From: a virus
Taxonomy: Duplodnaviria; Caudoviricetes
Strand: one strand, 5' to 3'
IMG/VR virus record: IMGVR_UViG_2654587505_000001
Location: 1 to 64,000 of that record
DNA: 64,000 nt
The notes under the pieces are model-generated. The model was not told the origin of the DNA. It ran no database searches and was given only the letters and a program-made list of their open reading frames with translations. This document shows, in pieces, positions 6,246 through 60,185 of the stretch. A program made the position numbers and the translations under genes. Each line of letters opens with the position of its first letter. Within the stretch, counting starts at the first letter, position 1.

Positions 6246-6303
6246 ATATTCCCAATTTCACCCCCATTAAATTACTAATAAAATTCCCATTTCATGACAC
6301 AAC

Positions 6304-6335
6304 AAAAAAGCCACCCTAACTGTGGGGTGACTTTT
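6304..6335 (-). terminator. Terminator of doc operon
   Basis: AAAAGTCACCC-loop-GGGTGGCTTTTTT on minus strand at the doc stop. Confidence 0.75.
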
Positions 6336-6732
6336 AAATTTTGACTGGTATAGAATGTCTTCGTAATAACTCAGTTAATGTCTCTATCGAAAGTCTTTTC
6401 TTTGCAACTCTTATTGCTATTATGTATAATAAATTCTCAGATATAATAACTCTATAATTATTAATTAGCAGAAAAGTAAGTGCGCAGGCAACTCCTGTTC
6501 GTTTATTCCCATCTGCAAAATATTGATGGGTAGCAAATCCATGTAGATATATTGCTGCTTTCATAAATAAATCAGGGTATTGATCTTGGCTAAAAATCAC
6601 CATTGATGGTTTATCAGCCATATAATCAATCATCCCTGATTCATGTTCGCCATAGATGCCACCATATCTAATCAAAGCTTCTTCATGAAGATATCTTATA
6701 TCCTCTGAGTCTAAGTAAATAATATTGCTCAA
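6334..6732 (-). CDS. doc: Doc/Fic family toxin (death-on-curing like)
   Basis: Fic/Doc motif xYFADGNKRTG; YPDLFMKAA; 132 aa; overlaps upstream small gene by 4 bp. Confidence 0.85.
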   Translation of the reverse strand: MSNIIYLDSEDIRYLHEEALIRYGGIYGEHESGMIDYMADKPSMVIFSQDQYPDLFMKAAIYLHGFATHQYFADGNKRTGVACALTFLLINNYRVIISENLLYIIAIRVAKKRLSIETLTELLRRHSIPVKI

Positions 6733-6872
6733 TTTTTACTCAACTTCTTAAAAGTGTTGTCATATTGCTTAAAAACCTCATTAGAAGCTTTTTTGATCAA
6801 TTCTTTGTGTGCCATTTTTGCGGTATTATCAGTTAATTTTTTAGCCAGCATATCTTTTCCCTCCTTATCCAT
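6729..6872 (-). CDS. Putative Phd-like antitoxin (47 aa)
   Basis: GGAGG RBS before GTG6875/ATG6872; C-terminal FKQYDNTFKKLS resembles Doc antitoxin helices; ATGA coupling to doc. Confidence 0.65.
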   Translation of the reverse strand: MDKEGKDMLAKKLTDNTAKMAHKELIKKASNEVFKQYDNTFKKLSKN

Positions 6873-6925
6873 CACATATACCTCCTGCTTAAAAGTTAGG
6901 CTGAGTATATGCAACTTCTAAGGAA

Positions 6926-6954
6926 AGTATACCATTTTATATGATGAAAGTAAA
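6926..6954 (-). promoter_or_regulatory. sigmaA-type promoter of TA operon
   Basis: TTTACT-17 bp-TATACT with extended TG. Confidence 0.6.
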
Positions 6955-7201
6955 CTATTATCAACAATAACCGACATGCGAAAATGGTCAAAATGTTCCT
7001 ACATATCTGAGACAAATGGAACCCAAACTTTGTTTACTTGGTAAAGGTTAAATCTTGGAGTGAGGCGCTTATATTCAATATACCACTCTTTTCCCTATGT
7101 TTCTCAATACATTTCGTTATATTTTAAGAGATTTTATTAGATTTCTTAGTTTTTTATGATTTTTTGATTAAAAACTAACCAGAAGGTTAGTTTAGTTAAA
7201 T

Positions 7202-7248
7202 AATAAATAAAAGAAGCTTCGAAAAAATGAAACTTCTTTTATTTATTA
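7202..7248. terminator. Bidirectional-type terminator after ankyrin gene
   Basis: AATAAATAAAAGAAG ... CTTCTTTTATTTATT inverted repeat. Confidence 0.6.
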
Positions 7249-7254
7249 TAAATA

Positions 7255-7983
7255 TTAATCTCTAATTCTTAACTTTCTATATTCAGCGGAATTTTTTTGA
7301 GTAAGGTCTATTGGCATTTTCCCTTCATTGTTTTTAACTTTTGCCTTAACGTTAAAATGATTTAAAAGTTCGCCCATATAAAAACTACTTTTTTCTAGAG
7401 TGGCAAAATGTAATGGCGTATTACCTTCTTTATTTGGTAATTCTGCGTCTACTCCATTATCTTTCAGCACTTGATATACAGGAAAATTATTTTCTATAAT
7501 AGCAAGAATAAGCAAACTGTTTCCAGTATCTTCGTCCTGTGCATTAACAGAGAGTTTCTTTTTTTCAATTGCTCTTTTAATTAGTTCTGGATCAAGTTTA
7601 CCATCTTTAGAATATTTTAGTTGTAAATCTTTAATATATTGTCCTGATGTATCACTCAATTGTTTAGTATCCTCCAATTTCACTTCACTATCGTTTTTGT
7701 TTTTCAACTTTTCCAGATGTTTTTGTCCGTCATTTTCAATCCCAATTATTCCATTCTCACCATCAAAGTCAACTTCATGACCAAATAAATTGCTTACTTC
7801 TCTTAGCGGAACATAACTTGTGCCATTGATTACAATAATGTCATTTTTTAATTCGACAAATTTCCCATTAAGAAGTACTTTGAATTTAGTTAAAGTCGCA
7901 ACGACTTCTCCATTATTTGCGAATACTGGAACACTAAATGTTAGAGCACTTCCTAATAAAACCCCCATAATAAATTTTTTCAT
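7255..7983 (-). CDS. Secreted protein: copper-amine-oxidase N-terminal (stalk) domain plus ankyrin repeats
   Basis: Signal peptide MKKFIMGVLLG..VFA; INGTSYVPLREVS stalk motif; GNSLLILAI / GNTPLHFA ankyrin repeats; own promoter (TTCCTA-17-TATATT) and RBS. Confidence 0.85.
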   Translation of the reverse strand: MKKFIMGVLLGSALTFSVPVFANNGEVVATLTKFKVLLNGKFVELKNDIIVINGTSYVPLREVSNLFGHEVDFDGENGIIGIENDGQKHLEKLKNKNDSEVKLEDTKQLSDTSGQYIKDLQLKYSKDGKLDPELIKRAIEKKKLSVNAQDEDTGNSLLILAIIENNFPVYQVLKDNGVDAELPNKEGNTPLHFATLEKSSFYMGELLNHFNVKAKVKNNEGKMPIDLTQKNSAEYRKLRIRD

Positions 7984-8081
7984 TGATGATTCCCCTCTCT
8001 TAGAATATTGACATACATAATATACCATATTTTAAGAGAGTTAGGAATATATAAATCGAAAAAATATTTATATATTTTATT

Positions 8082-13829: not shown

Positions 13830-13832
13830 TTA

Positions 13833-16800: not shown

Positions 16801-19800
16801 CTCTGCTGTTCAGCTAAGTGAGCTTTACGTTCTTTCTCTGCAACCCATTGAAGAATAGCACCTCTATCTTGAATAATGCCATTATGCTCAGAAAGATAGT
16901 CTATAAGTTCAGGGTATTTCTCCATTAGATTCAGTGTTTCATCTAATGATAGTTGTTGACCCTCTTGTAATTTTTGATAAGCTGAAGCAAGTGTATTTAT
17001 TCTTGAAAAGGTATCGCCTATCTTTTTATATAATTCTTCATGTTTATTTAATGACTCTTGGTTAACATCATTAGAATCTTCCATTGCACCAGAAGCGGCA
17101 TCAATAGCAGCCTTTTGATTAAACAGTGCTTTAATTCCTGCATCAATAATCTTGTTTACTTGTTCTAATGTAAATCCTGCACTAAGCATAGATCTTCTCT
17201 GTGCATTCCAAGAGTCTGCTGATTCTATATTTTTTTTACTAAGTCGAGAAATAAAATCTAGTTGTTCTGGAGACATTAATTTTAATTCATCAAAAGAAAA
17301 GATGTTTCCAACATTACCTACTTGATTACGCAATTCAACAATTTTTTGAGAATATTCTTCAGTTTCGCGTTTTAAGTTTTGATATGAATCAATCATTGAT
17401 TCATTGCTCTTAGTATTTTTAACTGTTTCCATTCCCAGTTTAATTTTCTCTTTTATTGCGTTTTGATCTTCTTTGGTTAAAGCATCAATACTTCCTTTTG
17501 TTCTAAGAACAGACTTGTTATACTCTTCAATATCACCAGCTAATTTTAAAAATATTTCCTTATTTTTAAAATCAATTTTACTAATATCGTTCAATAAACC
17601 AGTCTTTGCTTTTTCAGATAATGCAAATCCAAGTGTGTCTAGGTATGAACGATTGAGAGCAGCCGACTCAATATTTTGGAAAATTTCCCTTATTTGCTTA
17701 CGTGCATTTTTGTCAAAATTATCCGTATTAGCTTTATCTCTTTGGTTTTGAAGCTCTTTCAGTCTCTCAGTTTCTAGTTCAATGGCTTCAGCACTTTTTA
17801 AATGAGCCTGACCAGTTGCATCAATTCCAGCAGTATAAGAAGGCATAAGGTCATTAAGTTCATTTTGAATTTTCAATAACTCTTCTGTTTGTTCTCTTGT
17901 CGGATTAATTATTGATGATAATTCTTTATATCTTTCAGCAAGAAATCTTACTTTATCTTCTTGAGAACTTAACGATTGAATAGATATTTTGTCTTGTTGT
18001 TCTTGTTTCTCTTTTACCTGTTGTAACTCTGACCAATTTCTAATTACGCCTTCTAATGCTATTCCTAATGCAACAAAAGCGGCTCCAACAACAGTAGAAG
18101 CAACCAAGCCTCTAAGAGCGACTTTTGCTTTCGCTGAAGATACACCTAATGCATCTATACCTTTACCTAAAGTTAACACAGAAATTGTTAGAGTTCTAAA
18201 ATTTCTGTTTAAACCAGCAGCGGCGACTCCAACTGCCCCGAGAATAATCGGCAGAAAACCAATAGTGCTTACCGCTCCTGAAAAGGTATTTGCTAGAGAT
18301 GTTAAAGAGCCAACTATAGCAATAATTCCATCGTTAATAACCGCTTCACCTATCGTTAGACTAAACTCTTGCCAAGCTGCCTTTAACTTTTCGATTCTAG
18401 CTTGCAAAGATTCCATATATTTGGCGTTTTCACGCATTGCACTATTCTCCGAGTGAAGGGCTGTTTGAGTGGCTTTGTGTGCTTCTGCTCTGTTCTGTAC
18501 CATAGCAAGAAAACGACTAAGTTGGTATCGTCCGGCCAGCACAACAGCAGTATTTTGTTGTTCCTCTTTTGTTAGGCTATTGAATTTAGACGAGTATTCG
18601 TCGATAATTTCCGTTGCACTCTTCATTTCTCCGCTAGCATTTTTTACGTTAATACCGATTGAAGCTAATGCATCTATAGCGGGCTGCATAGTAGTAAGTC
18701 GGCTATAGATTGTTTTTAAGGCGTTTCCCGCAATTGCTCCGCTTTCTCTTGTAGCCAACATAATAGAAGTAGCGTCTCCAATTGTCTCTTCCATGGTTAC
18801 GCCAAATGTCTTGGCTGTGCTCCCTGCCTTCATTAAACTTATGGCTAGGTCTTTTGTAGTAACCGCGAAATTGTTGTCTACCTCGTTTAACGCATCCACG
18901 ATTCTGATCGATTTACTTGCCTCGATATTAAAAATGGTCATCGCGGCTGTCATGGCATCCATTGCTTCTTTACCTGATAACTCAGATATATTCGTTGCCA
19001 ATGTTGCAGTTCTTGTGAGCGCTAAAACTTGATCTTCACTGAAACCCTGTCTTGCAAAGCCTATCATAGCCTCATTAACAGTTGTAATTGAGCGACCAAG
19101 TTCATTTGCCAATTCAATACTGCCACGAAGCATGTTCTCAAAATTAGTATCCTGATCCATTACTCTTTTCAATTCAACCATCTGAGAGTCTAGTTGTACC
19201 ACCATGTCTATAGCTGACTGGAGTCCGCGAAACGGTGCATAGAAAGCGGTGGCAGTAACCATCCATATGGGGAATTTCTGGAATGCAGTTGATAGTGCTT
19301 CTCTTAAAGAAATACTGTGAGAAGTAGCGGATTTTGCTTGGTTTACATATTCATTCAATCGATGGTTCAATTTATTTAAAACCTGTTCGCCATTTTGGGC
19401 AAGGTTTAAAGATTTAGCGTCAACAGCTAAATTATTTAAGTTACTAACAAGATTTTTATCTCCTGAATATCTCCGCTGATATTCCCCTATTTTTAATATA
19501 AGATCTTCTTGTTTCTTAATTAAACTATCATATTGTTTCTTTGCCTTATTAACAAAATTCTCAGTATCTCGCTCTTCCTGCAATAGATTTCTTCTAATAG
19601 ATGCTTGCAAATCGTCATAATCTTTTTTTACTTTATTTACAAAATTCTGATACTCACGTTCTTCCTGAAGAAGATTTGATCTAGTTGCTTTTAATAATTC
19701 TTCTTGTGTCTTAGTTTTTTTAACTGCATCAGAAATATCTCTGTTTTTTAATGCTTTACTCCACCAGTCCTCATATGCTTGACGACTTTTTTGAATCTTA

Positions 19801-20522
19801 GCAATCTCCGCTCTTTCTATTTCTGCATTCTTCTGTATTTGTGCTTGTTGATTTTCATTCCATTGTTTTTCAAAATTTCGCACTCTTTCTTGGCTTTTAA
19901 TTCGAAATTCAGCCATTTGATTAGCGAGATCATTTAATTCTTTTGCTTCTGCATGAGCGGCATCAATTTCTTTTTTTCTTTGAGATTCTTGCTGTTTAGC
20001 AAATTTCTCTTGTGCTTTAATTCGACCATCTGCAATCTGATTTGCAAGTTTTTCGGCATCTGCACGTTCTTTTTCTGCATTATAATTACTTGTGTACCCA
20101 ATGGTCTTAATTGTTCCATCAGGATTAATATATCTATTTTCAGTTACACTTTGATACTTACTTCCAGTTGTGATTGATTCACCAATTTTTTCTTTTACTC
20201 CATTAAATCTTTCTTGTACTCGTAACAGACTTTCTACAGCTTTTGTTTGCTGATTAATGGCTTCTGTTTCATTTTTTATTTTCTGTGTTACATTATTAGT
20301 TACACTACTTTGAACATCGGTTACTTGCGCAATTTTCTTTAAGTTGTTGGCAAATTCATCAAGTATTTTTACAAATGATGTGTCAATGTCAACATCTAGT
20401 TTAACTTTTATTTTCTGTAAACTTGGATGCTTCGAAATTGCCTGAATGGACTCATTGATGGACTTAACTGATAAACCTTTATTTAAATCAGCCTGTATTA
20501 AAATCTTTAGTGTATCTGACAC
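13833..20522 (-). CDS. Tail tape measure protein (TP901 family core)
   Basis: 2229 aa, helical/coiled coil, DALNEVDNNFA..TRESG..GNALKTI core, hydrophobic segments, YHSGGIVG near C-terminus. Confidence 0.93.
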   Translation of the reverse strand: MSDTLKILIQADLNKGLSVKSINESIQAISKHPSLQKIKVKLDVDIDTSFVKILDEFANNLKKIAQVTDVQSSVTNNVTQKIKNETEAINQQTKAVESLLRVQERFNGVKEKIGESITTGSKYQSVTENRYINPDGTIKTIGYTSNYNAEKERADAEKLANQIADGRIKAQEKFAKQQESQRKKEIDAAHAEAKELNDLANQMAEFRIKSQERVRNFEKQWNENQQAQIQKNAEIERAEIAKIQKSRQAYEDWWSKALKNRDISDAVKKTKTQEELLKATRSNLLQEEREYQNFVNKVKKDYDDLQASIRRNLLQEERDTENFVNKAKKQYDSLIKKQEDLILKIGEYQRRYSGDKNLVSNLNNLAVDAKSLNLAQNGEQVLNKLNHRLNEYVNQAKSATSHSISLREALSTAFQKFPIWMVTATAFYAPFRGLQSAIDMVVQLDSQMVELKRVMDQDTNFENMLRGSIELANELGRSITTVNEAMIGFARQGFSEDQVLALTRTATLATNISELSGKEAMDAMTAAMTIFNIEASKSIRIVDALNEVDNNFAVTTKDLAISLMKAGSTAKTFGVTMEETIGDATSIMLATRESGAIAGNALKTIYSRLTTMQPAIDALASIGINVKNASGEMKSATEIIDEYSSKFNSLTKEEQQNTAVVLAGRYQLSRFLAMVQNRAEAHKATQTALHSENSAMRENAKYMESLQARIEKLKAAWQEFSLTIGEAVINDGIIAIVGSLTSLANTFSGAVSTIGFLPIILGAVGVAAAGLNRNFRTLTISVLTLGKGIDALGVSSAKAKVALRGLVASTVVGAAFVALGIALEGVIRNWSELQQVKEKQEQQDKISIQSLSSQEDKVRFLAERYKELSSIINPTREQTEELLKIQNELNDLMPSYTAGIDATGQAHLKSAEAIELETERLKELQNQRDKANTDNFDKNARKQIREIFQNIESAALNRSYLDTLGFALSEKAKTGLLNDISKIDFKNKEIFLKLAGDIEEYNKSVLRTKGSIDALTKEDQNAIKEKIKLGMETVKNTKSNESMIDSYQNLKRETEEYSQKIVELRNQVGNVGNIFSFDELKLMSPEQLDFISRLSKKNIESADSWNAQRRSMLSAGFTLEQVNKIIDAGIKALFNQKAAIDAASGAMEDSNDVNQESLNKHEELYKKIGDTFSRINTLASAYQKLQEGQQLSLDETLNLMEKYPELIDYLSEHNGIIQDRGAILQWVAEKERKAHLAEQQRLLDSVNNTYNALEAKRKMYEIFYTKINPLLVSESFTSKWGNPTGVTEDNNFLFADSYKGKKFGLTEADEKALKDAEKRKKELEVVIALLSQPIDLATYGGNKPKKERDKQDTQATLHTLTDFTKEEINNINQVISARDNNIKSLERQINIADKTGNYNKIIEFTNQLLNEQKSKIDDINTANSRLSSSANNIRSTYQSLADQFAKDGIGFDAWFNDDATASKVFIKTIQDIDKTIQKIEGDGLNLTDTQKVQIKKLENQKSLYEKIFSQIQSIKQAWNGNTEEIQKISDAIDGLSEKVVDAKFNFSKSWIENSKAFGMLDLEGELAAWKRMLENHKDNEQDIQYMREANAAKRKEIEKEIFKLSWELLKQTIDKSVEEVKKYDDQLEISKDRIGLLKEESREYAEELQNQIQILQNKLKAEEAHEQVIRKQMETVGLTQQQWNELNQQLKQSILAQIDIASSIKSTNQSLKEQLNTLSDDVVDIYKEMYKKQKEVALKGIENEQKALEKSHQRKINMLDEEMKKYDELVQARLKALDEQANEEDYQQQLTKLTKERDEIQKEIDKRKLDTSLENKAKTAELLKQLQEKNEEIDDFQKKHLREAAKKALQEQLADKQKSIDSQKEIEDKAYENEKERLDNLREVTDQYYENLIQDERKYRQIREEIQRGYFDRVKADLRQFATFTQNNSQIIGQSISNNLIDKIDDASKRIGETSTIFNTTFSNMATNLQDTMISKVDQLISKFKDLDNLKFGNLTSQLGDINKTIEQMKQNSINWYNSNNEDQQKLSQENQRLGSSIGATMDSNGEWVKDGKQLYSIYYQPKEEEKPKIEKMKENSKLWNSADATRKKELEQANQWMGQQIGATYKNGTWFKNGLPLYHSGGIVGGKSIPLIEKLHKMFNLGSDEELSILKKGELVIKNKPVDIISKLINKIKTPDFSNFSLSPRAVTAGNNVYHDYTFRIDKVIGDKKGAESFVEEVFKNMKNKGKV

Positions 20523-20824
20523 AATAATTCACTCCTTTTCAAAAAATAGAAAAAGAAGCGAACTAAGTTATATCGCTTCTTTAAATCACTATATTTTATT
20601 TAAAAATCAAACAAAAAAGTGTGGCATTACGCCACTAATTATGAACCCACAAAAAATAACACTTTGACTACGTAAACAACATTATTATGAAATAAGCATT
20701 TTATCTTCTCTTTAACAAAATTAACCATACCTCAAGAATAGAGAGATATGGTCTGTTTTGTTAAAGAATAAAAAAATTAAATTAGAATTATATGGCCAAT
20801 CCTGTATTGATTCTTAGTGACTTG

Positions 20825-21019
20825 CTAACTTTGAGTACTACAAGTGTTTTCGCTCCATTTAATGGGATTGTCACTAATATAAGGCTTATAAAGATATGGA
20901 GAAGCGGTATATGTGTAAGTCTGTTTAGGTTGAGTTTCAATAAGTTTTTTAAATTCAATCACTTCTTGAGGGGTTCCCTCAACTTCAAATCCATAAATAT
21001 TGGCTTTCATTAGGTTCAC
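20825..21019 (-). CDS. Small hypothetical protein
   Basis: 64 aa, GAGGTG RBS, VEGTPQE motif common in small phage proteins. Confidence 0.6.
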   Translation of the reverse strand: MNLMKANIYGFEVEGTPQEVIEFKKLIETQPKQTYTYTASPYLYKPYISDNPIKWSENTCSTQS

Positions 21020-21028
21020 ACCTCACTA

Positions 21029-22042
21029 TTATGCAAAATTAAACATATTATTTATCATTTCTTCTGAATGATCTTTCGCATAACCTTGCGTAGTTTTAGG
21101 GTCAGAATGATGAAGGAACAATTGAACTTCTTCAAGCTTAAATTTTTTCGGTTTTCCTTCTTCATCTAGGATTCTCAAATCTTCGCCTTGAAGTAAACAT
21201 TCTGCCCTAGAATGTCGTAAACTGTGAGGGAAAAATTGAATATCTTTTCCTTCAATTTCACTTAGCACCTTAGACATATACACAACACGATCATACAAGA
21301 CATCATAACCAGCAGGTTTCTTGTTTTCTCCGCTACCAATAATCCACAAAGAATCTATATCATCTTCGCCACGCTGTTTTAAATATTCAGCAATTAATTC
21401 TCTTGTATCATTTAAATAAACAAGTGGAAATGTCTTACCTCGTTTACCTACCACAATATTTGTCTTATTTCCATCAAGAAGTCCATGTTTAACTATTTGA
21501 CTGACTTCATTGCGTCTCCCACCGCTATCAAACATTACCATAAGTAAAACAGCATATTGCAACTTACCGCGATTAATTAGTTCTTGTCTAAGTTTCATTA
21601 CTTGCTCGAAAGTTAAAAAGAAATCATCTTCATTTGTTCTAACAGGTTCTTTCGGCAAGCCTTTAACTTTCTTTGCAACATTATTATCATAGTCATAATC
21701 ATCGTCATCTTCACAATATGTAAGAAGGGAACGTACAGCGCTCATAAGTCGGTTTGACCTAGCATTACTTAGTTTTAATTCTTCACTTAACCAAATACTG
21801 AAACGTCTAAAATCCTTTTTACCTAAATCAAAAATACATTTATTACCCAATTTACGTTTAATGTAAATTAAAACAATCCTCAAGTCATTCTTATACTGGT
21901 CGATTGTGGATTTCTTCATCTTGCGTTGAGTATATTCTTCAAGAAAATCTTCCATAATATTTTTATTTTCTTGATTTACTTCTTTCCATTCTTCTATATT
22001 AAAAATTCTGTTGTATACTGTTCCACGTTCTGATTTGCTCAC
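21029..22042 (-). CDS. Tyrosine recombinase inside tail operon (YomM-like)
   Basis: Catalytic set R (GGRRNE), K (GKRGK), HSLR, HH, Y (TTQGY); same position as SPbeta yomM. Confidence 0.9.
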   Translation of the reverse strand: MSKSERGTVYNRIFNIEEWKEVNQENKNIMEDFLEEYTQRKMKKSTIDQYKNDLRIVLIYIKRKLGNKCIFDLGKKDFRRFSIWLSEELKLSNARSNRLMSAVRSLLTYCEDDDDYDYDNNVAKKVKGLPKEPVRTNEDDFFLTFEQVMKLRQELINRGKLQYAVLLMVMFDSGGRRNEVSQIVKHGLLDGNKTNIVVGKRGKTFPLVYLNDTRELIAEYLKQRGEDDIDSLWIIGSGENKKPAGYDVLYDRVVYMSKVLSEIEGKDIQFFPHSLRHSRAECLLQGEDLRILDEEGKPKKFKLEEVQLFLHHSDPKTTQGYAKDHSEEMINNMFNFA

Positions 22043-22054
22043 TGAATCACCTTC

Positions 22055-22507
22055 CTAAATTACATCAAACCCTCTTTTCTTCATACCCCTTTTATATGAT
22101 TCAATATGTCTACCATTATGTTTCAAGAAATTAATAGTATCTTCGTAGAAATTACGCTCAAATGGTTGAGCACGATAAATTGCAGAATTTACCCAACTAT
22201 AGCCAATACCTTTAGCTACAATTCTAGCTACATCTCTATCACCATCATGTCTTGTATTAATAATTTGTATTGTATCATTATCAATCACAGTTACTTCCAT
22301 ATTTGCAATATTGGATAGTTCGTGAGTTCTAACGTACTGAGTAGGGGTATATTGTTCATAAGTCACTTCTTCAATTACTTCATGCATTTGCTGTTTAACA
22401 GCGTCTGCCACTTCATTTTGTAGCACTTTACTGTTCTCGCTATGAATATATTTAAACAAATCATTCAGATTCGTGAAGTTCTTGTTTGCCATTTTCTTCA
22501 CCTGCAT
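22055..22507 (-). CDS. Putative tail completion/neck protein
   Basis: YTPTQYVRT motif and synteny; likely start ATG ~22492. Confidence 0.6.
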   Translation of the reverse strand: MQVKKMANKNFTNLNDLFKYIHSENSKVLQNEVADAVKQQMHEVIEEVTYEQYTPTQYVRTHELSNIANMEVTVIDNDTIQIINTRHDGDRDVARIVAKGIGYSWVNSAIYRAQPFERNFYEDTINFLKHNGRHIESYKRGMKKRGFDVI

Positions 22508-22961
22508 TATTTTCTGTCGATCTTATTTTGTCTACTTCTTTTTTTAATTCTTGTGTAACAAATTTGAAAGTTTTTTCGATTTCTTCAAATATAGTTTCCA
22601 ATTCTTTTCCTTCAAAAGAACTGATAATTTTCTCAAGGTATCCTCCGTCTTTTAAATAATCAAGCATTTCCATTATTCCATCATAGCCTTCTGCATCAGT
22701 CTCAATAGATGTGAAATGCTTGATTATTAAAGCAGTACCTAAAGCAAGGACAACACCAGAGTCTATTTTTTTATTATCAATCAATGCAGTGTGTACAATA
22801 TCCATGAATTCTGCTGTAAGTAAATTTCTTCTGGAAGGGCGAAAAACAACATCAATATCAACACTAACCCCATCAAAAATAACCTTTTTCTTATCTTTGA
22901 ATTTTTGGTTAACCTGTTTTTTTACCAAGTTCATAGAAAGATTTTTTGTAGTTTTACTCAT
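22461..22961 (-). CDS. Putative tail assembly chaperone
   Basis: Between tail tube and tape measure; AGGGAG RBS. Confidence 0.55.
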   Translation of the reverse strand: MSKTTKNLSMNLVKKQVNQKFKDKKKVIFDGVSVDIDVVFRPSRRNLLTAEFMDIVHTALIDNKKIDSGVVLALGTALIIKHFTSIETDAEGYDGIMEMLDYLKDGGYLEKIISSFEGKELETIFEEIEKTFKFVTQELKKEVDKIRSTENNAGEENGKQELHESE

Positions 22962-23091
22962 CTAAATCATTCTCCCTTATTTTTTATTTTCTCGGTTTTT
23001 TCTTTTGTCTTCATAACTAAAAAAATAATAAAACTACTATCTTAATAGAATAATCTACATTCATATTGAATTCAGACTTTATATATAGAAA

Positions 23092-23241
23092 CTATTTATC
23101 ATTTTCTTCTTTAATTGGATTTGTTAAAACACTCATAATTTCATTTAATGCTCGATTTTCCTTCAATCCCTCATACTTAACACGATCAAGAAACAAAAAA
23201 ATATTATTTAATACTGCATCAGAAATCTCAAACTTAGCCAT
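23092..23241 (-). CDS. Small hypothetical protein (49 aa, MAKFEISDAV...; not in ORF track)
   Basis: AGGGAG RBS, ATG 23241, TAG 23092. Confidence 0.6.
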   Translation of the reverse strand: MAKFEISDAVLNNIFLFLDRVKYEGLKENRALNEIMSVLTNPIKEENDK

Positions 23242-23287
23242 TATAACAACTCCCTATAAAATGAGAATTTTATCATAGTTTTTTAAA

Positions 23288-23318
23288 AAAATAAGGCAGA
23301 GGTTATCTCTGCCTTATT
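23288..23318 (-). terminator. Terminator after major tail gene
   Basis: AATAAGGCAGAG-loop-CTCTGCCTTATT plus T-run on minus strand. Confidence 0.8.
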
Positions 23319-23364
23319 CGGTAGGTTTGGTTATATTTAAATAATTTATTCTATATAATTATTA

Positions 23365-24141: not shown

Positions 24142-24211
24142 TTATTTGTTCCTCCTTATATTATGTAGAATAAAAAAAATCTCCTTTCGGAGACTTTAAT
24201 TAAATATGTAT

Positions 24212-30088: not shown

Positions 30089-30145
30089 TCCTTGATTAAT
30101 TATTATTTATTTTTGAAATTGTTTTAATAATATAAAAATATTATT

Positions 30146-31678
30146 TTACTTTTGACCAATCAGACTTTTGATAATATCAGTGGCACTAACTAAAATTTTG
30201 TCACCATCACCATTATTTAGATCAGTCTTAGGTTTAACATTATTATGTTTTTCACTTGTTTCTAAGTCTGTAGATTCATTATTTAAGTCTTTTTGAGAAT
30301 TCTTACTTGCTTTATACTTTTCAATTGCACGTCTACCTTTAATGATCTCAATCTTTTCTTGAGATGCTTCAAAAGTTTCAAGTGTCAATTCAGCAAAGAT
30401 TTGTGCTAATTTTTCATCAGAATCTAGTTCATCTTCACTAATTAGACTATCTTCCAAAGCAAATGTTCTTAATTCTACTTTCTTTTCAGCAAGTTCCCTT
30501 TCTTTTTCTGCCTGTTCCATTTGTTCAACTTTTTCTTTAAATGGTTCAAGCTCGGCAATTTTCGCCTCTAAATCTTCTTTCTCTTTAGATACTTCAGTGA
30601 GCAGTTTACCTGCTTCAGCAATTTGCTTTTCAGCCTCATCGATTTTTCCTTGCAGTTCCGATACCTGCGATTCTAATTCTGAAACTGGAACAAATTTCAT
30701 TTTTACTTCTTCTTGAGAAGTGATACTTACAGTGTCATCGCTATTAACTGTATAGGTGAATCTCACAAAATCTTCTTGGGACTCACGATCCCAGTAATAG
30801 CCAATAGCTGTGTAATTGTATGGATAAATAATTGACAAATAATAATATTTATCACTATTAGCGTTATTGATTGCACGCCTTACTTTCGTCCATAAATCTT
30901 CATGTGTTACATCGGACGTTTGAATTTTATCTTCTTTCCCCATTTGTTCTTGTCCTCCTTTGTCTGTTCTAATATTATCTTTTATACTTACATCGTCTTC
31001 TTTATCTTCGCTATAATCCCCCTTAGATAATGACAACATATCTTGTGACAATGCCTCAAAGAACTCATTGTCTTGCTCTAAACTTGCAACGTCAATAACT
31101 CCACTGGATTTATAAGCTGGTTGAACATTCTCTCCTAAAACAGCATGCCCAATGAATTCTCCTGAATCAATAACCTTGATATTTTTATTTTTAATTTTTT
31201 CCTTATGTGATTCATGGACATTAATTTCCCATGAAGTTTTCAGACCTTTTTTGCTTTCAACTCTATTCTTGAATACTTTATAGGCTTTCTTAAATCGTTT
31301 CCATATTTTAGCATTAGCTGTAATGTACTCAATATCATCAATGGTCTCGATTTGCACACTATAAAAAGAACCAAATGCTTGTGTATCAAATTCGATGGTC
31401 TTAATTTTATTTCCATCTTCATCTATTTCTTCAACAATTTTTGCATTATGCCCAGAAAAATCTTCTTTTCCGTCATAGCGAGTAATAACTTTACCTACCA
31501 CTGGTTTATTGAGTAATGTATCTAACCAATTTTCAATTGTATTTCTGTTAAGAGAAATATTATTTCCATTTGGCTTAAAATCACAAATAATAAACTTTGC
31601 ATCAACAGAGTCACTATTATTTTCTTCACTAAGTATAACGGTATAACTACTTGTTAATTTTATTGTTTCTAGATCCAT
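30146..31678 (-). CDS. Prohead protease/scaffold protein (YonD-like)
   Basis: N-terminal protease-like region (FSGH, TSWEI), acidic coiled-coil C-terminus; between portal and capsid. Confidence 0.7.
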   Translation of the reverse strand: MDLETIKLTSSYTVILSEENNSDSVDAKFIICDFKPNGNNISLNRNTIENWLDTLLNKPVVGKVITRYDGKEDFSGHNAKIVEEIDEDGNKIKTIEFDTQAFGSFYSVQIETIDDIEYITANAKIWKRFKKAYKVFKNRVESKKGLKTSWEINVHESHKEKIKNKNIKVIDSGEFIGHAVLGENVQPAYKSSGVIDVASLEQDNEFFEALSQDMLSLSKGDYSEDKEDDVSIKDNIRTDKGGQEQMGKEDKIQTSDVTHEDLWTKVRRAINNANSDKYYYLSIIYPYNYTAIGYYWDRESQEDFVRFTYTVNSDDTVSITSQEEVKMKFVPVSELESQVSELQGKIDEAEKQIAEAGKLLTEVSKEKEDLEAKIAELEPFKEKVEQMEQAEKERELAEKKVELRTFALEDSLISEDELDSDEKLAQIFAELTLETFEASQEKIEIIKGRRAIEKYKASKNSQKDLNNESTDLETSEKHNNVKPKTDLNNGDGDKILVSATDIIKSLIGQK

Positions 31679-36422: not shown

Positions 36423-36466
36423 CTATCTTTGCACTTAAAGTATTATAATAAAATGAAAATTTTATC

Positions 36467-44159: not shown

Positions 44160-44186
44160 TAATTCTGTCCTCCAATTCATTATATT

Positions 44187-44651: not shown

Positions 44652-45701
44652 GTGCAAAGTTTAGCGACTGTACAAAGTTTAAATATTGATTCCGTTTATG
44701 ATGCTTTCATAACTTGGATAAATAAATATAAAGAAAATTCAAGAATGGAGTATATACGAAATGTAAATGAATTCTTTATGTTTATGCATGGGAAGACCAT
44801 TGAAAATATTACCAAACAGGAAATTGAAACAGTAACCGATGTGACAGGAAAAAGAGTCAAACTTTTAAATATGCATGTGGAAAAATATAAACAATATTTA
44901 AAACAGAAAAAAAATACTGATTCTTCTATCATTAGAAAAATATACGCAATTCGTTCTCTGTATAAATATTTGCGAATCAATGGCTACGATGTAGATCATT
45001 TAATTTTTGATTCTTCTGCTTTAAAAAATAAGCCTAAAAGTTATGGATTCTACACTCCAGATGAAGTAAAAATGGTTGCAAAAGAAGCATTAAATGAACT
45101 CCATTATGGGGAAGAGTTATATATTTGTTACTTGTTGGCTGCACAAACAAGTATACGTCTTAATGCTTTGTTAAGTTTGAAATGGTCAAATATTAGCAAA
45201 GATGAGAAGAGTGGATTGTACATAATTGAAACGATTGACAAAAACGATGAAGAAGTTATTGCTCCATTTGAACAAGAATTACACCATCGGCTAATTGAAA
45301 TTAAAAATAGATACAATTCAGATAAATTGTTCCCTAATCTTAAACCAGATAAAGTAGAAAAGTCATTACACAGGATTAATAACAGATTAGGGTTCTCTAA
45401 AACAAGAAGACTTACTTTTCATTCCTTACGTAAAGTAGCAATTAACTACGGTGTAAATGTGATGAAGGATATTAAGGGTGCTCAGGAACAGGGTCGTCAT
45501 AAATCTGTTCAAGTTATGATTGATCGATATACACAAACTGAAACAGACTTTAGTACTCGTGCTGGAATTCAAATGATGAAAGAGGCTAATGAAGAAGTTT
45601 TTGACTTAGTTAATAAAAAAGAACTATTGGAGATGTTAAAGGAGATGAATATTGGAGTATATAATCAATTGGCATTGAAGATAGAGAGGATGGTGGAGTA
45701 G
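44652..45701 (+). CDS. Tyrosine recombinase/integrase family protein
   Basis: SAM-like N-terminus; R (SIRLNAL), K, HSLR, GRH, RY catalytic residues; AAGGAGG RBS. Confidence 0.88.
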   Translation: MQSLATVQSLNIDSVYDAFITWINKYKENSRMEYIRNVNEFFMFMHGKTIENITKQEIETVTDVTGKRVKLLNMHVEKYKQYLKQKKNTDSSIIRKIYAIRSLYKYLRINGYDVDHLIFDSSALKNKPKSYGFYTPDEVKMVAKEALNELHYGEELYICYLLAAQTSIRLNALLSLKWSNISKDEKSGLYIIETIDKNDEEVIAPFEQELHHRLIEIKNRYNSDKLFPNLKPDKVEKSLHRINNRLGFSKTRRLTFHSLRKVAINYGVNVMKDIKGAQEQGRHKSVQVMIDRYTQTETDFSTRAGIQMMKEANEEVFDLVNKKELLEMLKEMNIGVYNQLALKIERMVE

Positions 45702-45867
45702 AATGGATGTGATAATTTCGTTTTATTTTTTGTGATTTTACTTCAATTAAAATAATATCTTAGTGTATGGAGAAATGAAGATAGTTAAGTATGATTGGAT
45801 AGATGTGAAGAAATCTTGTTTAAATTAAAATGAATTTAGAAGCGAAATAAATAATATGTATAAAACG

Positions 45868-50601: not shown

Positions 50602-51439
50602 GTTAAATATACTGTATATATTCATGTATATCATTGACTCATGTATATCATTGTTAAAAATATCCCCCCCTCATATAGGTTAAATCGGAACGTGAAAAGC
50701 TATAATCGACAATTATATAATTTTTGATGAATGTGGACGGAAAAAACTTAGATATTATAATGGTAAAATTGTGATTTAAGAGTCGCATTATGTGGTCAAA
50801 TAGATAGTTTTAATCGTGAAAGTATAGGTAGAACAAGGGAAAATTAGATATTAGAGATGTGAAATTTGTTAATTATGGAGAAATTGTGAAGAAATATATG
50901 GTAAGTTCCATGAGGTAATGAGTGTTAAAAATGTAGTAATTGTAAGGATATTTGTAATTGGTGAATATAGTAGATACGATTATAGATACGATTATAGTAG
51001 AGTGTGATGAGAAGTGAAATTGGTATTTTGATGTAAATTTAGTGTAATAGTGTAATCGATTGGTAATTTTAGTTGGAGGTGTGGATGGAAGTGCTCACAG
51101 CGTAAAATGGAAATAAATGGTTGATTTAGTTGTAAATATACCCCCCATACCTATATTGTAAGAGATGTAAAAAGCCTTGTAAACACTAGTAAAAACACAT
51201 GACTAACAATTATTAGTCATGGGTTATGGAAATAGATACCATTTGTTAAAATTTACTAATCTTGCTTTGGTCTATGATGCCAGCTTAATTAGGTTAAAAT
51301 AAGTGTTTTATCGATCAGTGCAGAATGATACTAGACCATTAATGACCACCAGTGCAGACTACCAGAACTTTGTTTAATAGATAAACAAATCGTATAGTAA
51401 CATGCGTCCATTTTTACAAGTGTTAACAAATACATATAC

Positions 51440-54572: not shown

Positions 54573-54848
54573 TTGACTCAGGATGAACTATTTATCTTAA
54601 TCAAACGTTTAGCATCTGAACGAAAGTACAAACTCACTTCACATGCACTAATAAGACTAAAGCAACGCAAATTAACTCGAAACGACATCCTAGACATATT
54701 AGAAAATCCAAAAAGGCTAATAAGAGAAGATGTATCAAGCGATGGAGTACATACATATAAGATTGCAGGAGGAATAAACAATCACCGATTAGCAATAGAA
54801 ATACAAGATAACGAACTAATTATTATCATCACGGCTATGAATAAATAG
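54573..54848 (+). CDS. DUF4258-like (RelE-fold) putative toxin
   Basis: LTSHALIRLKQRKLT..DI, terminal IIITAM. Confidence 0.75.
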   Translation: MTQDELFILIKRLASERKYKLTSHALIRLKQRKLTRNDILDILENPKRLIREDVSSDGVHTYKIAGGINNHRLAIEIQDNELIIIITAMNK

Positions 54849-54886
54849 TTCATAGCCTTATCATAAACTAAAAGGAGTGCATAAAA

Positions 54887-55309
54887 ATGAAATGCATCAA
54901 ATGCAGATCTGAATCCTTCAATAACTTTTTAGACACTTTAGAATTTGAAATTGACGGTAAAATATTTGTTGTCGAAAACATACCATGCGAACAATGTACA
55001 GTATGCAACGAAAAATATTATGATGATGAAGCAAATCAATATATTGACAAACAACTTGAAATATTTAAAGCAGATGGATTTGAAAACAAGGCCAAAGAAG
55101 TTACAAAAGAAAAAGGATTGACTCAAGAACAGCTAGGTGAATTATTAGGAGTATCTAAGCAGCGTATCAATCAAATATTTAAAGATAATAATCCAGATGT
55201 TAAAACTATGATCAAAATTAGCAAAGCCATAAATGAGCCTATACAAAATGTATTTTCTTTTAATCGGGTTATCAAAAAGGACAATAAATTTTATCTTGAC
55301 AGAAACTAA
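54887..55309 (+). CDS. MqsA/YgiT-type Zn finger plus XRE HTH, putative antitoxin
   Basis: MKCIKC..NIPCEQCTVCNEKYY; LTQEQLGELLGVSKQRINQI. Confidence 0.8.
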   Translation: MKCIKCRSESFNNFLDTLEFEIDGKIFVVENIPCEQCTVCNEKYYDDEANQYIDKQLEIFKADGFENKAKEVTKEKGLTQEQLGELLGVSKQRINQIFKDNNPDVKTMIKISKAINEPIQNVFSFNRVIKKDNKFYLDRN

Positions 55310-56650: not shown

Positions 56651-56696
56651 AGATAAAATTTAATTTCATATAAAAATAAAAAATGAAAAATAATGC

Positions 56697-56725
56697 TTGA
56701 CTTTATATATATAAAGAAATAATAT
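56697..56725 (+). promoter_or_regulatory. sigmaA-type promoter with palindromic spacer
   Basis: TTGACT-17-TAATAT; CTTTATATATATAAAG. Confidence 0.65.
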
Positions 56726-56763
56726 AGAAATATAAATAAATAATACAATTGGAGGTCAGCAAA

Positions 56764-57132: not shown

Positions 57133-57198
57133 GAGGGAAAGTTAATTCCCTCTTACCTTTAAAACATTGATTTTATTAGACGAATGGAGGAAAAGAAA

Positions 57199-57399
57199 AT
57201 GTATAGATTCAAACTTATGGATAAATCAGGGAAGTTATATGACAAGGTTTTTGCCATTATCGATAAGCACGCATTTTTATTTAAAATCTCCAGTGATAAC
57301 GAATATCAGGATAACGACGGGTATGTTATAGAATTTAATTCTTTACCTGCTGGAGCATATGAGGAGATAATAAAGTTAAAAGGAATTATAGAGTTATAA
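57199..57399 (+). CDS. Hypothetical protein
   Basis: GGAGG RBS before ATG 57199. Confidence 0.65.
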   Translation: MYRFKLMDKSGKLYDKVFAIIDKHAFLFKISSDNEYQDNDGYVIEFNSLPAGAYEEIIKLKGIIEL

Positions 57400-57647: not shown

Positions 57648-57675
57648 TTGACTTTATAAATATAAAGTATATAAT
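57648..57675 (+). promoter_or_regulatory. sigmaA-type promoter with palindromic spacer
   Basis: TTGACT-16-TATAAT; ACTTTATA-AA-TATAAAGT. Confidence 0.65.
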
Positions 57676-57710
57676 GTAGATATAAGGTTTGTACATAGGA
57701 GGCGGTTAGA

Positions 57711-58028: not shown

Positions 58029-58101
58029 AGGGGAATTGTTTCCCTTCTAATTTTTAGTGAAGATTAAAATATATTGTATTGTAAAATGGGAGGTAGCATA
58101 T

Positions 58102-58269
58102 ATGAATCAAAAATTTCTGCATTATGCGTATTTGTTTGTAAAAGAGGAATTAAAAGTAATTGGAGAAAGTATTGAGTCAGAATCAAACATAAACATCAAA
58201 AAACAATTAATTAGTCGTAAAAATGAACTTGAAAATGATTTATTAAATATCGAATCTTTAAAGGAATAA
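58102..58269 (+). CDS. Small coiled-coil hypothetical protein
   Basis: GGGAGG RBS before ATG 58102. Confidence 0.6.
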   Translation: MNQKFLHYAYLFVKEELKVIGESIESESNINIKKQLISRKNELENDLLNIESLKE

Positions 58270-58361
58270 ATGAGGGAACGATTTTATAAAGAATGTGGTC
58301 TAACAAAACAATAAAATTTAATTTTATTACTCAAAGTGTATAATAATGATGAGGTGATAAA

Positions 58362-58506
58362 AATGGCTTTTAACTCAAAAAGAGGAAGTCATATAGAATC
58401 TATCATGTTTACTTTGCCCATTGATAAATTGATTGTAGATGGATCGATCAAAGAGTTAACACAAGATGAGTTGTTACAATTTTTAATGAGTAAAAATAAT
58501 TATTAA
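58362..58506 (+). CDS. Small hypothetical protein (MAFNSKRG...; not in ORF track)
   Basis: GAGGTG RBS, upstream TATAAT, downstream terminator; ends approximate. Confidence 0.5.
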
Positions 58507-58771
58507 ACCGCCTAACAAGTGGCTTTTCTTTTTTTCTTCATCTTATCTCATTCCATCCACTCAAAAGCCTATACAGACCATTCTAAGCGTTTATAACCTG
58601 CTCCGCGATTATTCCACTATTGTACATATGCATCCGTTTAAATAGGCTTGTTGGCCTTTTAAATTGATTACATCTAAAGAGTAAAATATATAATAATAGT
58701 ATTGCGTTTTATACGTTTATGGTTTATAATGGTTTTAGTTAGTTATTTATTTTGTGGAGGTTGAAACATAT

Positions 58772-58963
58772 ATGCAAGAAATAAAACCATATACAATGAT
58801 GTATTCTACTATATTTAAGCAAAATGTCGAAGTTATTCGAGTTTATAAAGACACTGTAACAATCAGGGTAACGGCTGGAGGATTGCGCGAAGGTGAATTA
58901 ATGACATTTCGGGGACAGAGAAAAGATACTTTGTTGCCGATAAAGAGATTAAAGAGTGAATAA
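58772..58963 (+). CDS. Hypothetical protein
   Basis: Promoter TTGCGT-17-TATAAT (58702-58730), GGAGG RBS. Confidence 0.65.
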   Translation: MQEIKPYTMMYSTIFKQNVEVIRVYKDTVTIRVTAGGLREGELMTFRGQRKDTLLPIKRLKSE

Positions 58964-59019
58964 ATGATAAACTTTAATACCATTTAAAATTATGATAAAA
59001 TAATAGCGGAGGCGATTTT

Positions 59020-59349
59020 ATGAAAGTATTAACATTGAATTTTAACGAAGAAACAGAGGCGAGCGTACTAGAATTTCAGGAAGGTACATACGAAAGTTGG
59101 AATAACTATGTAAGAGAATGTTGTGAGAGTACTTTTCATGTAGAATTTAATTATAAGGGAATTGATTTCAGCGAGGAATTAGTTGTTAAAGCTTTAACGG
59201 ATCATTTTAGTACGTTCGATGAACCTGTTAATTCAGAAGAGTTTCACAATATGTTTAGAGATCATAGCAAACATGTTAATGACAATGAGATGACAAAAAT
59301 TAAACGAATTTGTTTAAATTACCTTAGAAAAGTATTATTTGAAGACTAA
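59020..59349 (+). CDS. Hypothetical protein
   Basis: GGAGG RBS. Confidence 0.75.
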   Translation: MKVLTLNFNEETEASVLEFQEGTYESWNNYVRECCESTFHVEFNYKGIDFSEELVVKALTDHFSTFDEPVNSEEFHNMFRDHSKHVNDNEMTKIKRICLNYLRKVLFED

Positions 59350-59628
59350 ATTTTATACATGAAGAGATTAGTACGCTTGGAGCCGATCCAAGTATAAATA
59401 AGCAATAATGAGTTTGTTTCAATACTCACTATGGGAAAGAATACCTCCAAATTCTTGAGGAAGTGCTAAGAGAAGAAATAGGTGAATGGACTGTATATGA
59501 AATGGGATACACAGGACGAAAAACGTATAGATAAAACTGATATATAAAAAATAATAAAACCACTTGCAAAAGTGGTTATCTTGCTTTATAATTATAAATA
59601 TAAAATACATAAATGGAGGTTTTGAATT

Positions 59629-60063
59629 ATGAAACGTGAAAGACGAACTAAAAGAGATATTGAAAACATGCGCCATGAATGTACAATGTATCTACTTCAA
59701 TACAAACTTGATCCTCATAAAGCATTTGAAGCAATGGTAAAGGATTGCTTAATATCTGGTCAGTCGATTCCATACTACATAAAAGGTATTAAAGACTTTA
59801 TTAGAGTATCCGAAGAATTAAAGGTTAAATTGAGCAGAACAGAAAAAGAAGAAGAAAAAGAACAAAAAGAAAATCCTATTGATAAACTAAAAAAGATCAC
59901 ACCAGAACAATATAAAGCAGAAATAATGCCGATATTTAAACAACAAACCGACAAAGAAATAAAAATAAGTCTGGTTAATCTCTGGCAATGTATCGATGGA
60001 AATTGTTTTAAATCAATTACAAATCAGGATATTAGATATTATCAAGAATTGAATATCGTATAG
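59629..60063 (+). CDS. Hypothetical protein
   Basis: Promoter TTGCAA-17-TATAAT (59564-59592), GGAGG RBS. Confidence 0.75.
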   Translation: MKRERRTKRDIENMRHECTMYLLQYKLDPHKAFEAMVKDCLISGQSIPYYIKGIKDFIRVSEELKVKLSRTEKEEEKEQKENPIDKLKKITPEQYKAEIMPIFKQQTDKEIKISLVNLWQCIDGNCFKSITNQDIRYYQELNIV

Positions 60064-60185
60064 GGTAATAAAATTTCAGTTTCATTACCTTTTTAATAAA
60101 TAAAATATGCAAAACATATTTACAATTATAAATCCTTGGTTTATAATATAATTATATTAAACAAATAATTATAGGAGGATAAAAA

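Follow-up and report, generated by a model that had tools for sequence, protein, structure and literature searches.

A spacing-dependent palindrome dispersed between genes of SPbeta-like phages and its possible relation to YopP-family tyrosine recombinases

A palindrome of 18 bp, ATRAAA-N6-TTTYAT, recurs between genes in a 64,000-nucleotide stretch of phage DNA (hereafter the window) that forms the first 64 kb of one 166,613-bp virus record, IMGVR_UViG_2654587505_000001 (31.6% GC). Counts against several null models confirmed that the palindrome is real and depends on the spacing of its arms. It is a dispersed DNA element of large Bacillales siphophages, comprising the SPbeta-like phages and their relatives, and ATRAAA-N6-TTTYAT is the extension seen in this phage. 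The form of the element, its companion gene and its position at mosaic junctions fit dispersed core sites of a YopP-family recombinase, with an operator as a serious rival. We give just short of even credence to the reading that the copies are lox- or dif-like core sites, at which a YopP-family tyrosine recombinase would act and which would mark junctions of gene exchange.

Spacing, sequence and placement of the palindrome

Five strict copies had been listed in a preliminary description of the window (at 6278, 20687, 23256, 36448 and 60068; Table 1), and their coordinates and sequences proved correct. The accompanying estimate of fewer than one chance copy per 64 kb also held, as dinucleotide shuffles gave 0.40 expected copies and none of 100 shuffles reached the five that were seen. 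With a third-order Markov null, in which coding and intergenic DNA were modelled separately, 0.68 copies were expected and the maximum in 200 was 3; this null is conservative because its intergenic model was trained on motif-bearing DNA. When the spacing in ATRAAA-Nk-TTTYAT was varied from k = 0 to 30, the window contained five copies at k = 6 and 0-2 at any other k, and everted or direct arrangements of the arms gave no peak in the scan. The whole record contains 39 strict copies at N6, 8 at N5 and 12 at N7, with 0-4 elsewhere between spacings 0 and 20. In an unbiased count of 5-mer and 6-mer palindromes at all spacings, ATAAAA-N6-TTTTAT ranked first (16 copies versus 0.74 expected, P = 2e-16). 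One-mismatch copies numbered 51 at k = 6 versus 23-36 at other spacings. Their mismatches fall mostly on the outermost bases; the core of the element is therefore TRAAA-N6-TTTYA, which occurs 68 times in the record at k = 6 versus 5-18 times at other spacings. Intergenic DNA makes up 10% of the genome yet holds 51 of the 68 core copies.

The near copies described at 3849, 40127 and 57159 differ from the strict pattern by one mismatch, whereas those at 45709 and 58270, with two left-arm mismatches each, are doubtful; the 17-bp variants at 56653 and 58311 are true N5 variants. Two more core matches, at 10710 and 33201, lie inside coding sequence and may be chance. The statement that the strict copies are all intergenic is correct for genes on the transcribed strand, but the copy at 23256 overlaps a 70-amino-acid (aa) open reading frame (ORF) on the opposite strand. 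The late-region copies at 6278, 20687 and 23256 are preceded by a terminator-like hairpin and followed by a tail gene, the genes flanking the first being assigned by Pfam to Fic/DOC and PAAR, and the copy at 36448 has the stop codon of a ClpP-like gene before it and a hairpin after it. Copies had also been said to edge the doc/ankyrin unit. A strict copy does stand at its downstream edge, whereas the other edge has an extended -10 promoter-like sequence instead.

For counts of anatomy, the 39 strict copies were oriented by gene direction. The upstream stop codon overlaps the copy or lies within 10 nt of it in 21 of the 39, and in nine a TAA or TGA within ATRAAA is itself the in-frame stop of the upstream ORF. 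The Shine-Dalgarno sequence (SD) of the next gene follows just downstream, with a G at the third base after the motif in 25 copies and at the fourth in 21. Among gaps of at least 20 nt in the plus-strand gene array, 41 of 173 hold a copy with at most one mismatch, and many further gaps on this strand hold N4, N5, N7 or N8 variants as judged by eye rather than by a count. Small and large genes do not differ clearly in how often they stand behind the motif (30 of 136 versus 7 of 60, P = 0.11).

The mirrored R and Y positions of the two arms vary independently (A/T 16, A/C 10, G/T 9, G/C 4; n = 39). The compensatory change expected of an RNA hairpin is absent from these copies, in which the R/Y combinations occur as under independence. 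In 10 of the 39, an A-C mismatch would sit in the middle of a six-pair A-U stem, which argues against a hairpin of either RNA or DNA and suggests that two subunits of the same kind recognize the element as duplex DNA. The spacers of the 68 core copies include no duplicate and no palindrome.

Enrichment in other phages was measured as the core count at N6 versus that at N9 or versus the range of other spacings; for SEP9, 9183, Ldl1 and BceA1 the control was the backwards pattern. In the 45-95 kb region of SPbeta, an unbiased palindrome count yielded 13 copies of TAAAA-N6-TTTTA versus 0.9 expected (P = 1.7e-11), with a peak limited to spacing 6. Eleven of the 15 TRAAA-N6-TTTYA copies in this region lie in early-region intergenic DNA, and several of them share bases with a stop codon or stand ahead of an SD. 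The N6 and control counts were 34 and 6 in phi3T, 38 and 4 in BUCT082, 42 and 15 in Geobacillus E3, 20 and 4 in a Staphylococcus SPbeta-like phage, 52 and 5 in Perkons, and 26 and 6 and 28 and 5 in the Bacillus phages vB_BcoS-136 and C30-3, respectively. Alicyclobacillus KKP_3916, at 40% GC, has 14 copies (control 0-2), a 21-kb prophage of Paenibacillus dendrobii has 12 (0-1) and a prophage of Paenibacillus sp. QZ-Y1 has 3 (0-1). PMBT24 has no strict copy in its full record and no core copy in its first 32 kb. No enrichment was detected in TR-TP1 (6 versus 4), SEP9 (13 versus 12), Enterococcus 9183 (9 versus 8), Ldl1 (4 versus 5), BceA1 (3 versus 1) or the IMG/VR contigs G001, G002 and G004.

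These counts bear on another explanation, namely that the palindrome is a by-product of AT-rich gene junctions, at which TAA or TGA with further A's is followed by a run of T's before the SD and no dedicated binder is involved. The nine in-frame stops within ATRAAA agree with such an origin, as do the occasional copies with an SD inside the spacer (SPbeta yonB and one copy in G001). A by-product would, however, have to account for the sharp peak at spacing 6 alone, for the excess over the class-specific Markov nulls, for the lack of enrichment in AT-rich Firmicute phages with similar junctions (PMBT24, TR-TP1, SEP9, 9183, Ldl1 and G001-G004) and for the persistence of the motif at 40% GC in KKP_3916. 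Spacing specificity and clade restriction already largely refute this explanation, which we regard as very improbable.

Association with YopP-family recombinases

DNA binders common to this phage and to SPbeta (45-134 kb) include HU (YonN), YonO, YopP, YopQ and YopR/MrpR. As judged from co-occurrence, the presence of the motif appears to follow the YopP-family recombinase and not YonO, HU, YopQ or YomM. YopP-like genes were found in every clearly enriched genome examined, with the Clostridium phage c-st and phiL47 classed as ambiguous. Direct searches showed the gene to be absent from PMBT24, TR-TP1, SEP9 and c-st; 9183, Ldl1 and BceA1 do not appear in the organism tally of YopP matches. In this phage the YopP-like gene opens the plus-strand array, and its product is 28% identical to SPbeta YopP. 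The contig G001 carries a polymerase 59% identical to that of this phage (that of SPbeta is 24% identical), and it has neither a YopP hit nor the motif over ~66 kb of early region in a contig that is ~56% complete. Thus, the motif does not simply follow overall relatedness.

Other candidate partners were rejected on the same grounds. YonO and HU are both encoded by the motif-free PMBT24 and gave no hit in the motif-bearing KKP_3916. YopQ/SroE, a ParB/DndB-like protein considered as a binder of parS-like sites, is present in the motif-free G001 and gave no hit in KKP_3916, and vB_BcoS-136 lies outside the 35 phage records that match YopQ. The preliminary description had spoken of three tyrosine-recombinase genes, two of which are in the window; the third, the MrpR homolog, lies outside it. 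The proposal in that description of recombination sites for one of the window's two enzymes is partly supported. In its favour are the co-occurrence of the motif with the family of the 44652-45701 protein, the catalytic residues kept in that family and the breakpoints at the motif. The YomM-like protein is not supported as the partner: of five phages that encode such a protein, SEP9, 9183, Ldl1 and BceA1 show no enrichment, and phiL47, which has a YopP-like match too, is enriched weakly (12 versus 5).

The position of the motif before the SD raises the alternative of a gene-expression signal, read in every transcription unit as either DNA or RNA. It could be a promoter, used by the YonO-like polymerase or by a phage sigma factor, or else a processing site or an enhancer of translation. 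Its placement is fixed relative to the SD (TTTYAT-NN-GGA) in 25 of 39 copies, three window copies stand between a terminator and an essential tail gene, and the phage encodes both a YonO-like polymerase and a sigma-70-family protein (147,503-148,126). A promoter of YonO-type polymerases is contradicted by YonO without the motif in PMBT24, TR-TP1 and G001 and by the reverse in KKP_3916. SPbeta YonO is reported, in the available part of the published work, to start a single late operon upstream of yonK, and the mapped start region (57148-69424 of the SPbeta record) has no strict core copy. The sigma factor was rejected as the binder, since SPbeta 45-134 kb encodes no counterpart of it. A scan for sigma-70 promoters over 84-104 kb found 89 versus 104 expected, and thus no enrichment near sites. 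A transcript begun by a -10-like arm would presumably lose the SD, the lack of base-pair covariation makes an RNA hairpin unlikely, and in the P. dendrobii prophage the SD lies anywhere between 2 and 9 nt away from the motif. An expression signal is accordingly considered unlikely, although less so than a mere by-product of base composition.

Catalytic residues were compared in an alignment of 15 YopP-family proteins (24-67% identity to that of this phage) with the YomM-like protein as outgroup, 16 in all. Arg-I and the box-II His-Ser are invariant in 16 of 16, and the hairpin-region Lys and His-III are nearly invariant in the YopP family. A Tyr occurs in the expected C-terminal motif of all aligned proteins, as read by eye across small alignment shifts. 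The Arg-II position holds Arg in 10 of the 15 family members and Lys in the remaining five (SPbeta, the Staphylococcus phage, vB_BcoS-136, KKP_3916 and P0011). Some ability to break and rejoin DNA has probably been retained in the YopP family, with the Arg/Lys position leaving doubt. MrpR is stated to lack crucial residues in the available part of PMC10516654. A sequence search of the PDB returned no match for the YopP-like protein and XerD alone (E = 0.0013) for the YomM-like protein.

Homology junctions, a possible exchange mechanism and the operator alternative

The preliminary description had proposed a comparison of breakpoints between related phages. In both SPbeta/phi3T and the lineage of this phage, the ends of homology blocks fall at the motif more often than by chance. 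The early regions of SPbeta and phi3T were aligned by blastn and 27 blocks were kept, of which the early-region ones give 46 ends. Seven of them are no more than 6 bp from a core site, versus 0.54 for random positions, and none of 5000 trials reached seven. If all 46 ends are placed in intergenic DNA, 2.5 are expected (P = 0.01); 19 of the 46 are truly intergenic. Homology begins exactly at the outer edge of an arm at SPbeta 83687 and 92392, and ends inside an arm or at the arm/spacer border at 86899 and 87603. The phi3T site after yoqG has a spacer identical to that of the SPbeta site after yoqI, and the flanks of this 16-bp site differ on both sides. As read from the aligned sequences, the shared-spacer site corresponds to an indel of yoqH-yoqI between two copies.

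In the lineage of this phage, a 44-kb metagenome contig was compared with positions 104,001-124,000 of the record, and all numbers that follow for this relative were counted among the matches listed. The pieces are 82% to 99.8% identical and their order is rearranged relative to this phage. Among 22 piece ends, seven are no more than 6 bp away from a core site of N5-N7 spacing, compared with 0.57 for random positions (0 of 4000 trials) and 2.75 when all ends are taken to be intergenic (P = 0.0145). Eight of the 22 ends are intergenic and six of these eight lie within 6 bp of a site; of the other two, one is inside a one-mismatch copy and one is 16 bp off. Pieces start on the first bases of a copy at 106373 and 107683, three piece ends fall within copies (109055, 113430 and 118143), and one piece ends at the arm/spacer border of a one-mismatch copy at 106889. 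In the relative, 121705 is fused to 123337; in this phage, the copies at these two positions enclose the C5-methylase gene and a small ORF. A methylase-like piece (82% identity) occurs in the relative between two other sites, at positions 106889 and 107683. The prophage loci of P. dendrobii and QZ-Y1 are 64-77% identical to each other and too diverged for junction analysis.

A mechanism can be envisaged in which two YopP-family monomers would occupy the inverted arms on either side of a 6-bp spacer that is unique to each copy. YopP would bind at the sites, cut at the arm/spacer borders and thereby make the junctions. The sites lie in the gap that separates the stop codon of one gene from the ribosome-binding site (RBS) of the following gene, and exchange at such a position would swap whole genes. 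The unique spacers would act as addresses, so that efficient strand exchange would presumably be limited to the same site on two co-resident related genomes. Exchange between matching sites would be modular and allelic, and rare exchange between different sites would delete, insert or relocate the intervening genes. The wider proposal, that SPbeta-like and related Bacillales phages possess a built-in system of gene exchange made up of an orphan YopP-family recombinase and dozens of spacer-addressed lox-like sites, is possible but doubtful.

The layout of the element is that of a tyrosine-recombinase core site, with inverted arms around a 6-bp central region and minor N5 and N7 classes. Several observations weigh against core sites of YopP. 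The conserved arms measure just 5-6 bp versus 9-13 bp at known core sites, and the flanks beyond the arms of the 39 strict copies are not symmetric. Accessory and conserved genes stand behind the motif equally often (33 of 174 versus 4 of 22). The G residues at the third and fourth bases after the motif hint at a tie to gene expression, which the exchange reading explains only by compaction. Most homology ends lie away from sites (39 of 46 for SPbeta and phi3T and 15 of 22 for the relative), and the all-intergenic nulls are beaten just moderately in both comparisons. Because the motif fills the gap from stop to SD, selection alone would bring viable junctions near it. The link between motif and YopP is a correlation over few, phylogenetically non-independent genomes; G001, G002, G004 and G005 are fragments, the last having a YopP-like gene with too little early region to judge. 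Clostridium phage c-st has 37 copies at N6 versus 20 at N9 without a detectable YopP-like gene, although this count may reflect its very low GC content, and phiL47 is only weakly enriched despite its YopP-like match. Lys at the Arg-II position may entail reduced or no catalysis in phages that keep the motif. Finally, yopP belongs to the yopM-yopR (sro) repression operon of SPbeta and is reported to be transcribed in lysogens, a setting that also fits a regulator.

A regulator is the main alternative. The palindrome would then be the operator of a dimeric protein, either a non-catalytic YopP acting like its paralog MrpR or another protein, that controls or silences the long early operons, and breakpoints would cluster at it only since it is a short shared sequence located right at gene borders. 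This alternative is serious, yet we hold it to be rather unlikely. A palindrome with independently varying half-sites is what such a protein would recognize, and the place of yopP in a repression operon that is active in lysogens agrees with it. The motif lies just upstream of the SD, as do some copies of SPBRE, the element bound by MrpR, which abut the SD in SPbeta at yopV, yopM and yonX. A second repressor, SroE, is presented without a known mechanism in the available part of bioRxiv 10.1101/2025.11.27.690993; YopQ/SroE itself fails the co-occurrence comparison. The five Lys residues at Arg-II and the moderate excess over the intergenic-only breakpoint nulls also favour an operator. The number of sites, 68 core copies when the 39 strict ones are taken with one-mismatch copies, is large for an operator, sigma-70-type promoter-like sites are not enriched nearby, and many copies directly follow a stop codon and leave no room for a promoter. 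Moreover, the Tyr, Arg-I and His residues are kept across 24-67% identity, unlike in MrpR, and six of the eight intergenic piece ends in the phage's own lineage lie within 6 bp of sites.

MrpR itself, together with SPBRE, was the initial hypothesis for the palindrome and was rejected; the earlier suggestion of a recombinase-fold regulator as the binder is thus not supported for this known one. MrpR/SroF, the master repressor of SPbeta, is a protein of tyrosine-recombinase fold whose target is the repeated element SPBRE, and its 10 peaks in chromatin affinity purification with sequencing (ChAP-seq) are SPBRE sites, as given in the available part of PMC10516654. The phi3T SroF binds a 26-bp asymmetric box as a monomer and reads 24 of the 26 bp, according to the available part of bioRxiv 10.1101/2025.11.27.690993. 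SPBRE as derived here from six ChAP-seq target promoters is an oriented 20-mer, AAATACAAAWAATATGTATA, with 11 close matches (at most two mismatches) in SPbeta, every one of them in gene direction. Like SPBRE/Phi3TRE, the palindrome is AT-rich, recurs in the genomes of this phage group and has a proposed binder of tyrosine-recombinase fold, and some copies of SPBRE likewise abut an SD. It differs in that SPBRE is an oriented, asymmetric box of ~20-26 bp present about 10 times per genome at promoters, whereas the palindrome is symmetric, has a free spacer and is present in 39-68 copies. SPbeta carries both elements, and the MrpR ChAP-seq peaks in the available data fall at SPBRE only. One palindrome copy of SPbeta (NC_001884, 76171-76186) has the yopJ terminator on one side and the SPBRE of the aimR promoter on the other, within the class of fragment used in MrpR binding studies.

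Related systems and genomic context

Core sites of YopP-family recombinases would resemble lox/Cre, dif/XerCD and FRT/Flp in having inverted arms around a 6-8-bp spacer and a tyrosine recombinase, with mostly conserved catalytic residues, encoded in the same genome. They would differ in copy number, with dozens per genome where the known sites have one or two, in conserved arms of just 5-6 bp, and in having Lys at Arg-II in five of 15 family members. Identity of spacers is the rule by which heterospecific lox sites find their partners, and such a rule would explain the 68 differing spacers.

The pdif sites of Acinetobacter plasmids have an 11-6-11 layout and are used by host XerC/XerD. The attC sites of integrons are long imperfect hairpins that IntI recombines as single strands, next to attI and a common promoter. 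The palindrome shares with both the presence of many sites that bound gene units varying in content and order between related replicons. The sequences and architecture are unlike, and the element here stands inside phage operons between stop codon and SD. Membership in either class is not supported. For attC, the motif is 18 bp long, shows no hairpin covariation and has copies spread over 166 kb inside operons, and no search with the attC consensus was made. The promoter-early stem-loop (PeSL) cassettes of T4-type phages and the promoter-bounded modules of T7-like phages involve promoters or stem-loops that act through homologous recombination. These are likewise short intergenic repeats among small phage genes at mosaic junctions, but here no enrichment of sigma-70 promoters was found, the stem shows no covariation, and a recombinase family co-occurs.

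The usual account of phage mosaicism is that illegitimate or relaxed homologous recombination occurs by chance and selection then acts on the products. If the motif were the site of YopP, mosaicism would gain a site-specific mechanism of its own, whose junctions could be predicted. The full exchange system, if it exists, would be to phages what integrons or pdif modules are elsewhere, and mosaicism would have an enzyme as its cause. The orphan recombinase would gain a substrate and a function that can be tested in the Bacillus subtilis/SPbeta model. If the palindrome were an operator instead, SPbeta would have a second set of operators, spread over its genome and so far undescribed. Large phages of the SPbeta-like, Tsamsa-like, E3 and Perkons kinds are described, in the available part of the literature, as having one working serine integrase and three tyrosine-recombinase-like genes each, whose role is called unknown there apart from that of MrpR. 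The palindrome is unmentioned in the available parts of the review PMC8270828, of PMC10516654 and of bioRxiv 10.1101/2025.11.27.690993.

Table 1 Palindrome copies and related genes (positions in the window unless marked as record).
Feature	Position	Strand	Remark
Strict copy ATAAAATTCCCATTTCAT	6278..6295	.	On - strand between doc-gene terminator and PAAR-gene RBS
Strict copy ATGAAATAAGCATTTTAT	20687..20704	.	Between YomM-like recombinase region and tape-measure gene
Strict copy ATAAAATGAGAATTTTAT	23256..23273	.	- strand order: terminator, motif, 2 nt, GGAG, ATG of 49-aa ORF
Strict copy ATAAAATGAAAATTTTAT	36448..36465	.	Begins 1 nt past ClpP-like stop; terminator-like hairpin next
Strict copy ATAAAATTTCAGTTTCAT	60068..60085	.	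Begins 4 nt past stop of ORF 59629-60063
Core copy TGAAAATTATATTTTA	3850..3865	.	Intergenic; near copy 3849; outer A to C
Core copy TAAAAATATTATTTTA	30133..30148	.	Overlaps stop of - strand gene 30146-31678; absent from the preliminary description
Core copy TAAAATAAGTGTTTTA	51295..51310	.	Intergenic; absent from the preliminary description
Core copy TAAAACATTGATTTTA	57160..57175	.	22 nt upstream of ORF 57199-57399, after terminator-like hairpin
N5 spacing variant ATAAAATTTAATTTCAT	56653..56669	.	
N5 spacing variant ATAAAATTTAATTTTAT	58311..58327	.	
YonO-type RNA polymerase gene	41397-44180	-	927 aa, single chain
YopP-family tyrosine recombinase gene	44652..45701	+	Proposed motif partner; Pfam Phage_integrase 7.8e-11
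YomM-like tyrosine recombinase gene	21029..22042	-	Assigned by Pfam; disfavoured as partner
MrpR homolog gene	92,529-93,521 (record)		Outside window
Sigma-70-family protein (regions 2 and 4)	147,503-148,126 (record)		Outside window

The window contains an SPbeta-like gene set, with YomG-like and tape-measure tail genes, a large terminase, YonK and an HU-like protein. Beyond the window, the record carries MrpR- and YopQ-like genes, an SprA-like serine recombinase, DNA polymerase III alpha and ribonucleotide reductase. Genes lie on the minus strand up to ~44.4 kb (late genes and polymerase block) and on the plus strand from 44.6 kb onward. The phage is taken to be a Paenibacillus-type prophage because the nearest named homolog of its YopP-like protein is from Paenibacillus (61%), an identical protein is also on record on a 5.2-Mb contig, and related prophages occur in two Paenibacillus genomes. 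A megablast search of window positions 20000-24500 against phages gave no match, and no relatives of the YopQ-like protein were found in IMG/VR.

The 927-aa YonO-type polymerase is 47% identical to the split homolog of Clostridium phage c-st and ~40% to those of Enterocloster phages; its identity to SPbeta YonO is just ~24%, far below these matches. A minus-strand insert at 6334-8081 in the row of tail genes comprises a Doc/Fic gene, a 61-aa ORF upstream and an ankyrin-repeat protein, and has terminator-like hairpins and the extended -10-like sequence TGGTATATT before the ankyrin gene. A PAAR-motif protein is encoded at 5847-6245 (minus strand) in the distal tail region, and a ClpP-family protease at 36467-37072 (minus strand) directly upstream of the terminase block. 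Among the early genes, a DUF4258 protein followed by an MqsA-like helix-turn-helix protein (54573-55309, plus strand) likely forms a toxin-antitoxin pair.

Outside the window, an IS200-type Y1 transposase with TnpB occupies 87,623-89,062 of the record, and three further TnpB/IS605-OrfB genes lie at ~119,900-121,139, 128,471-129,724 and 156,307-157,506. The hairpin CCGTAGTTCCTACGG occurs at two places in the record (local coordinates 5072-5086 and 19333-19347). The intergenic gaps at ~94.2 kb and ~95.4 kb of the record contain, as seen by eye, a near-identical stretch of ~19 nt, GAAATAATACATTTATTGG, just before the SD, which is a short inverted repeat distinct from the palindrome.

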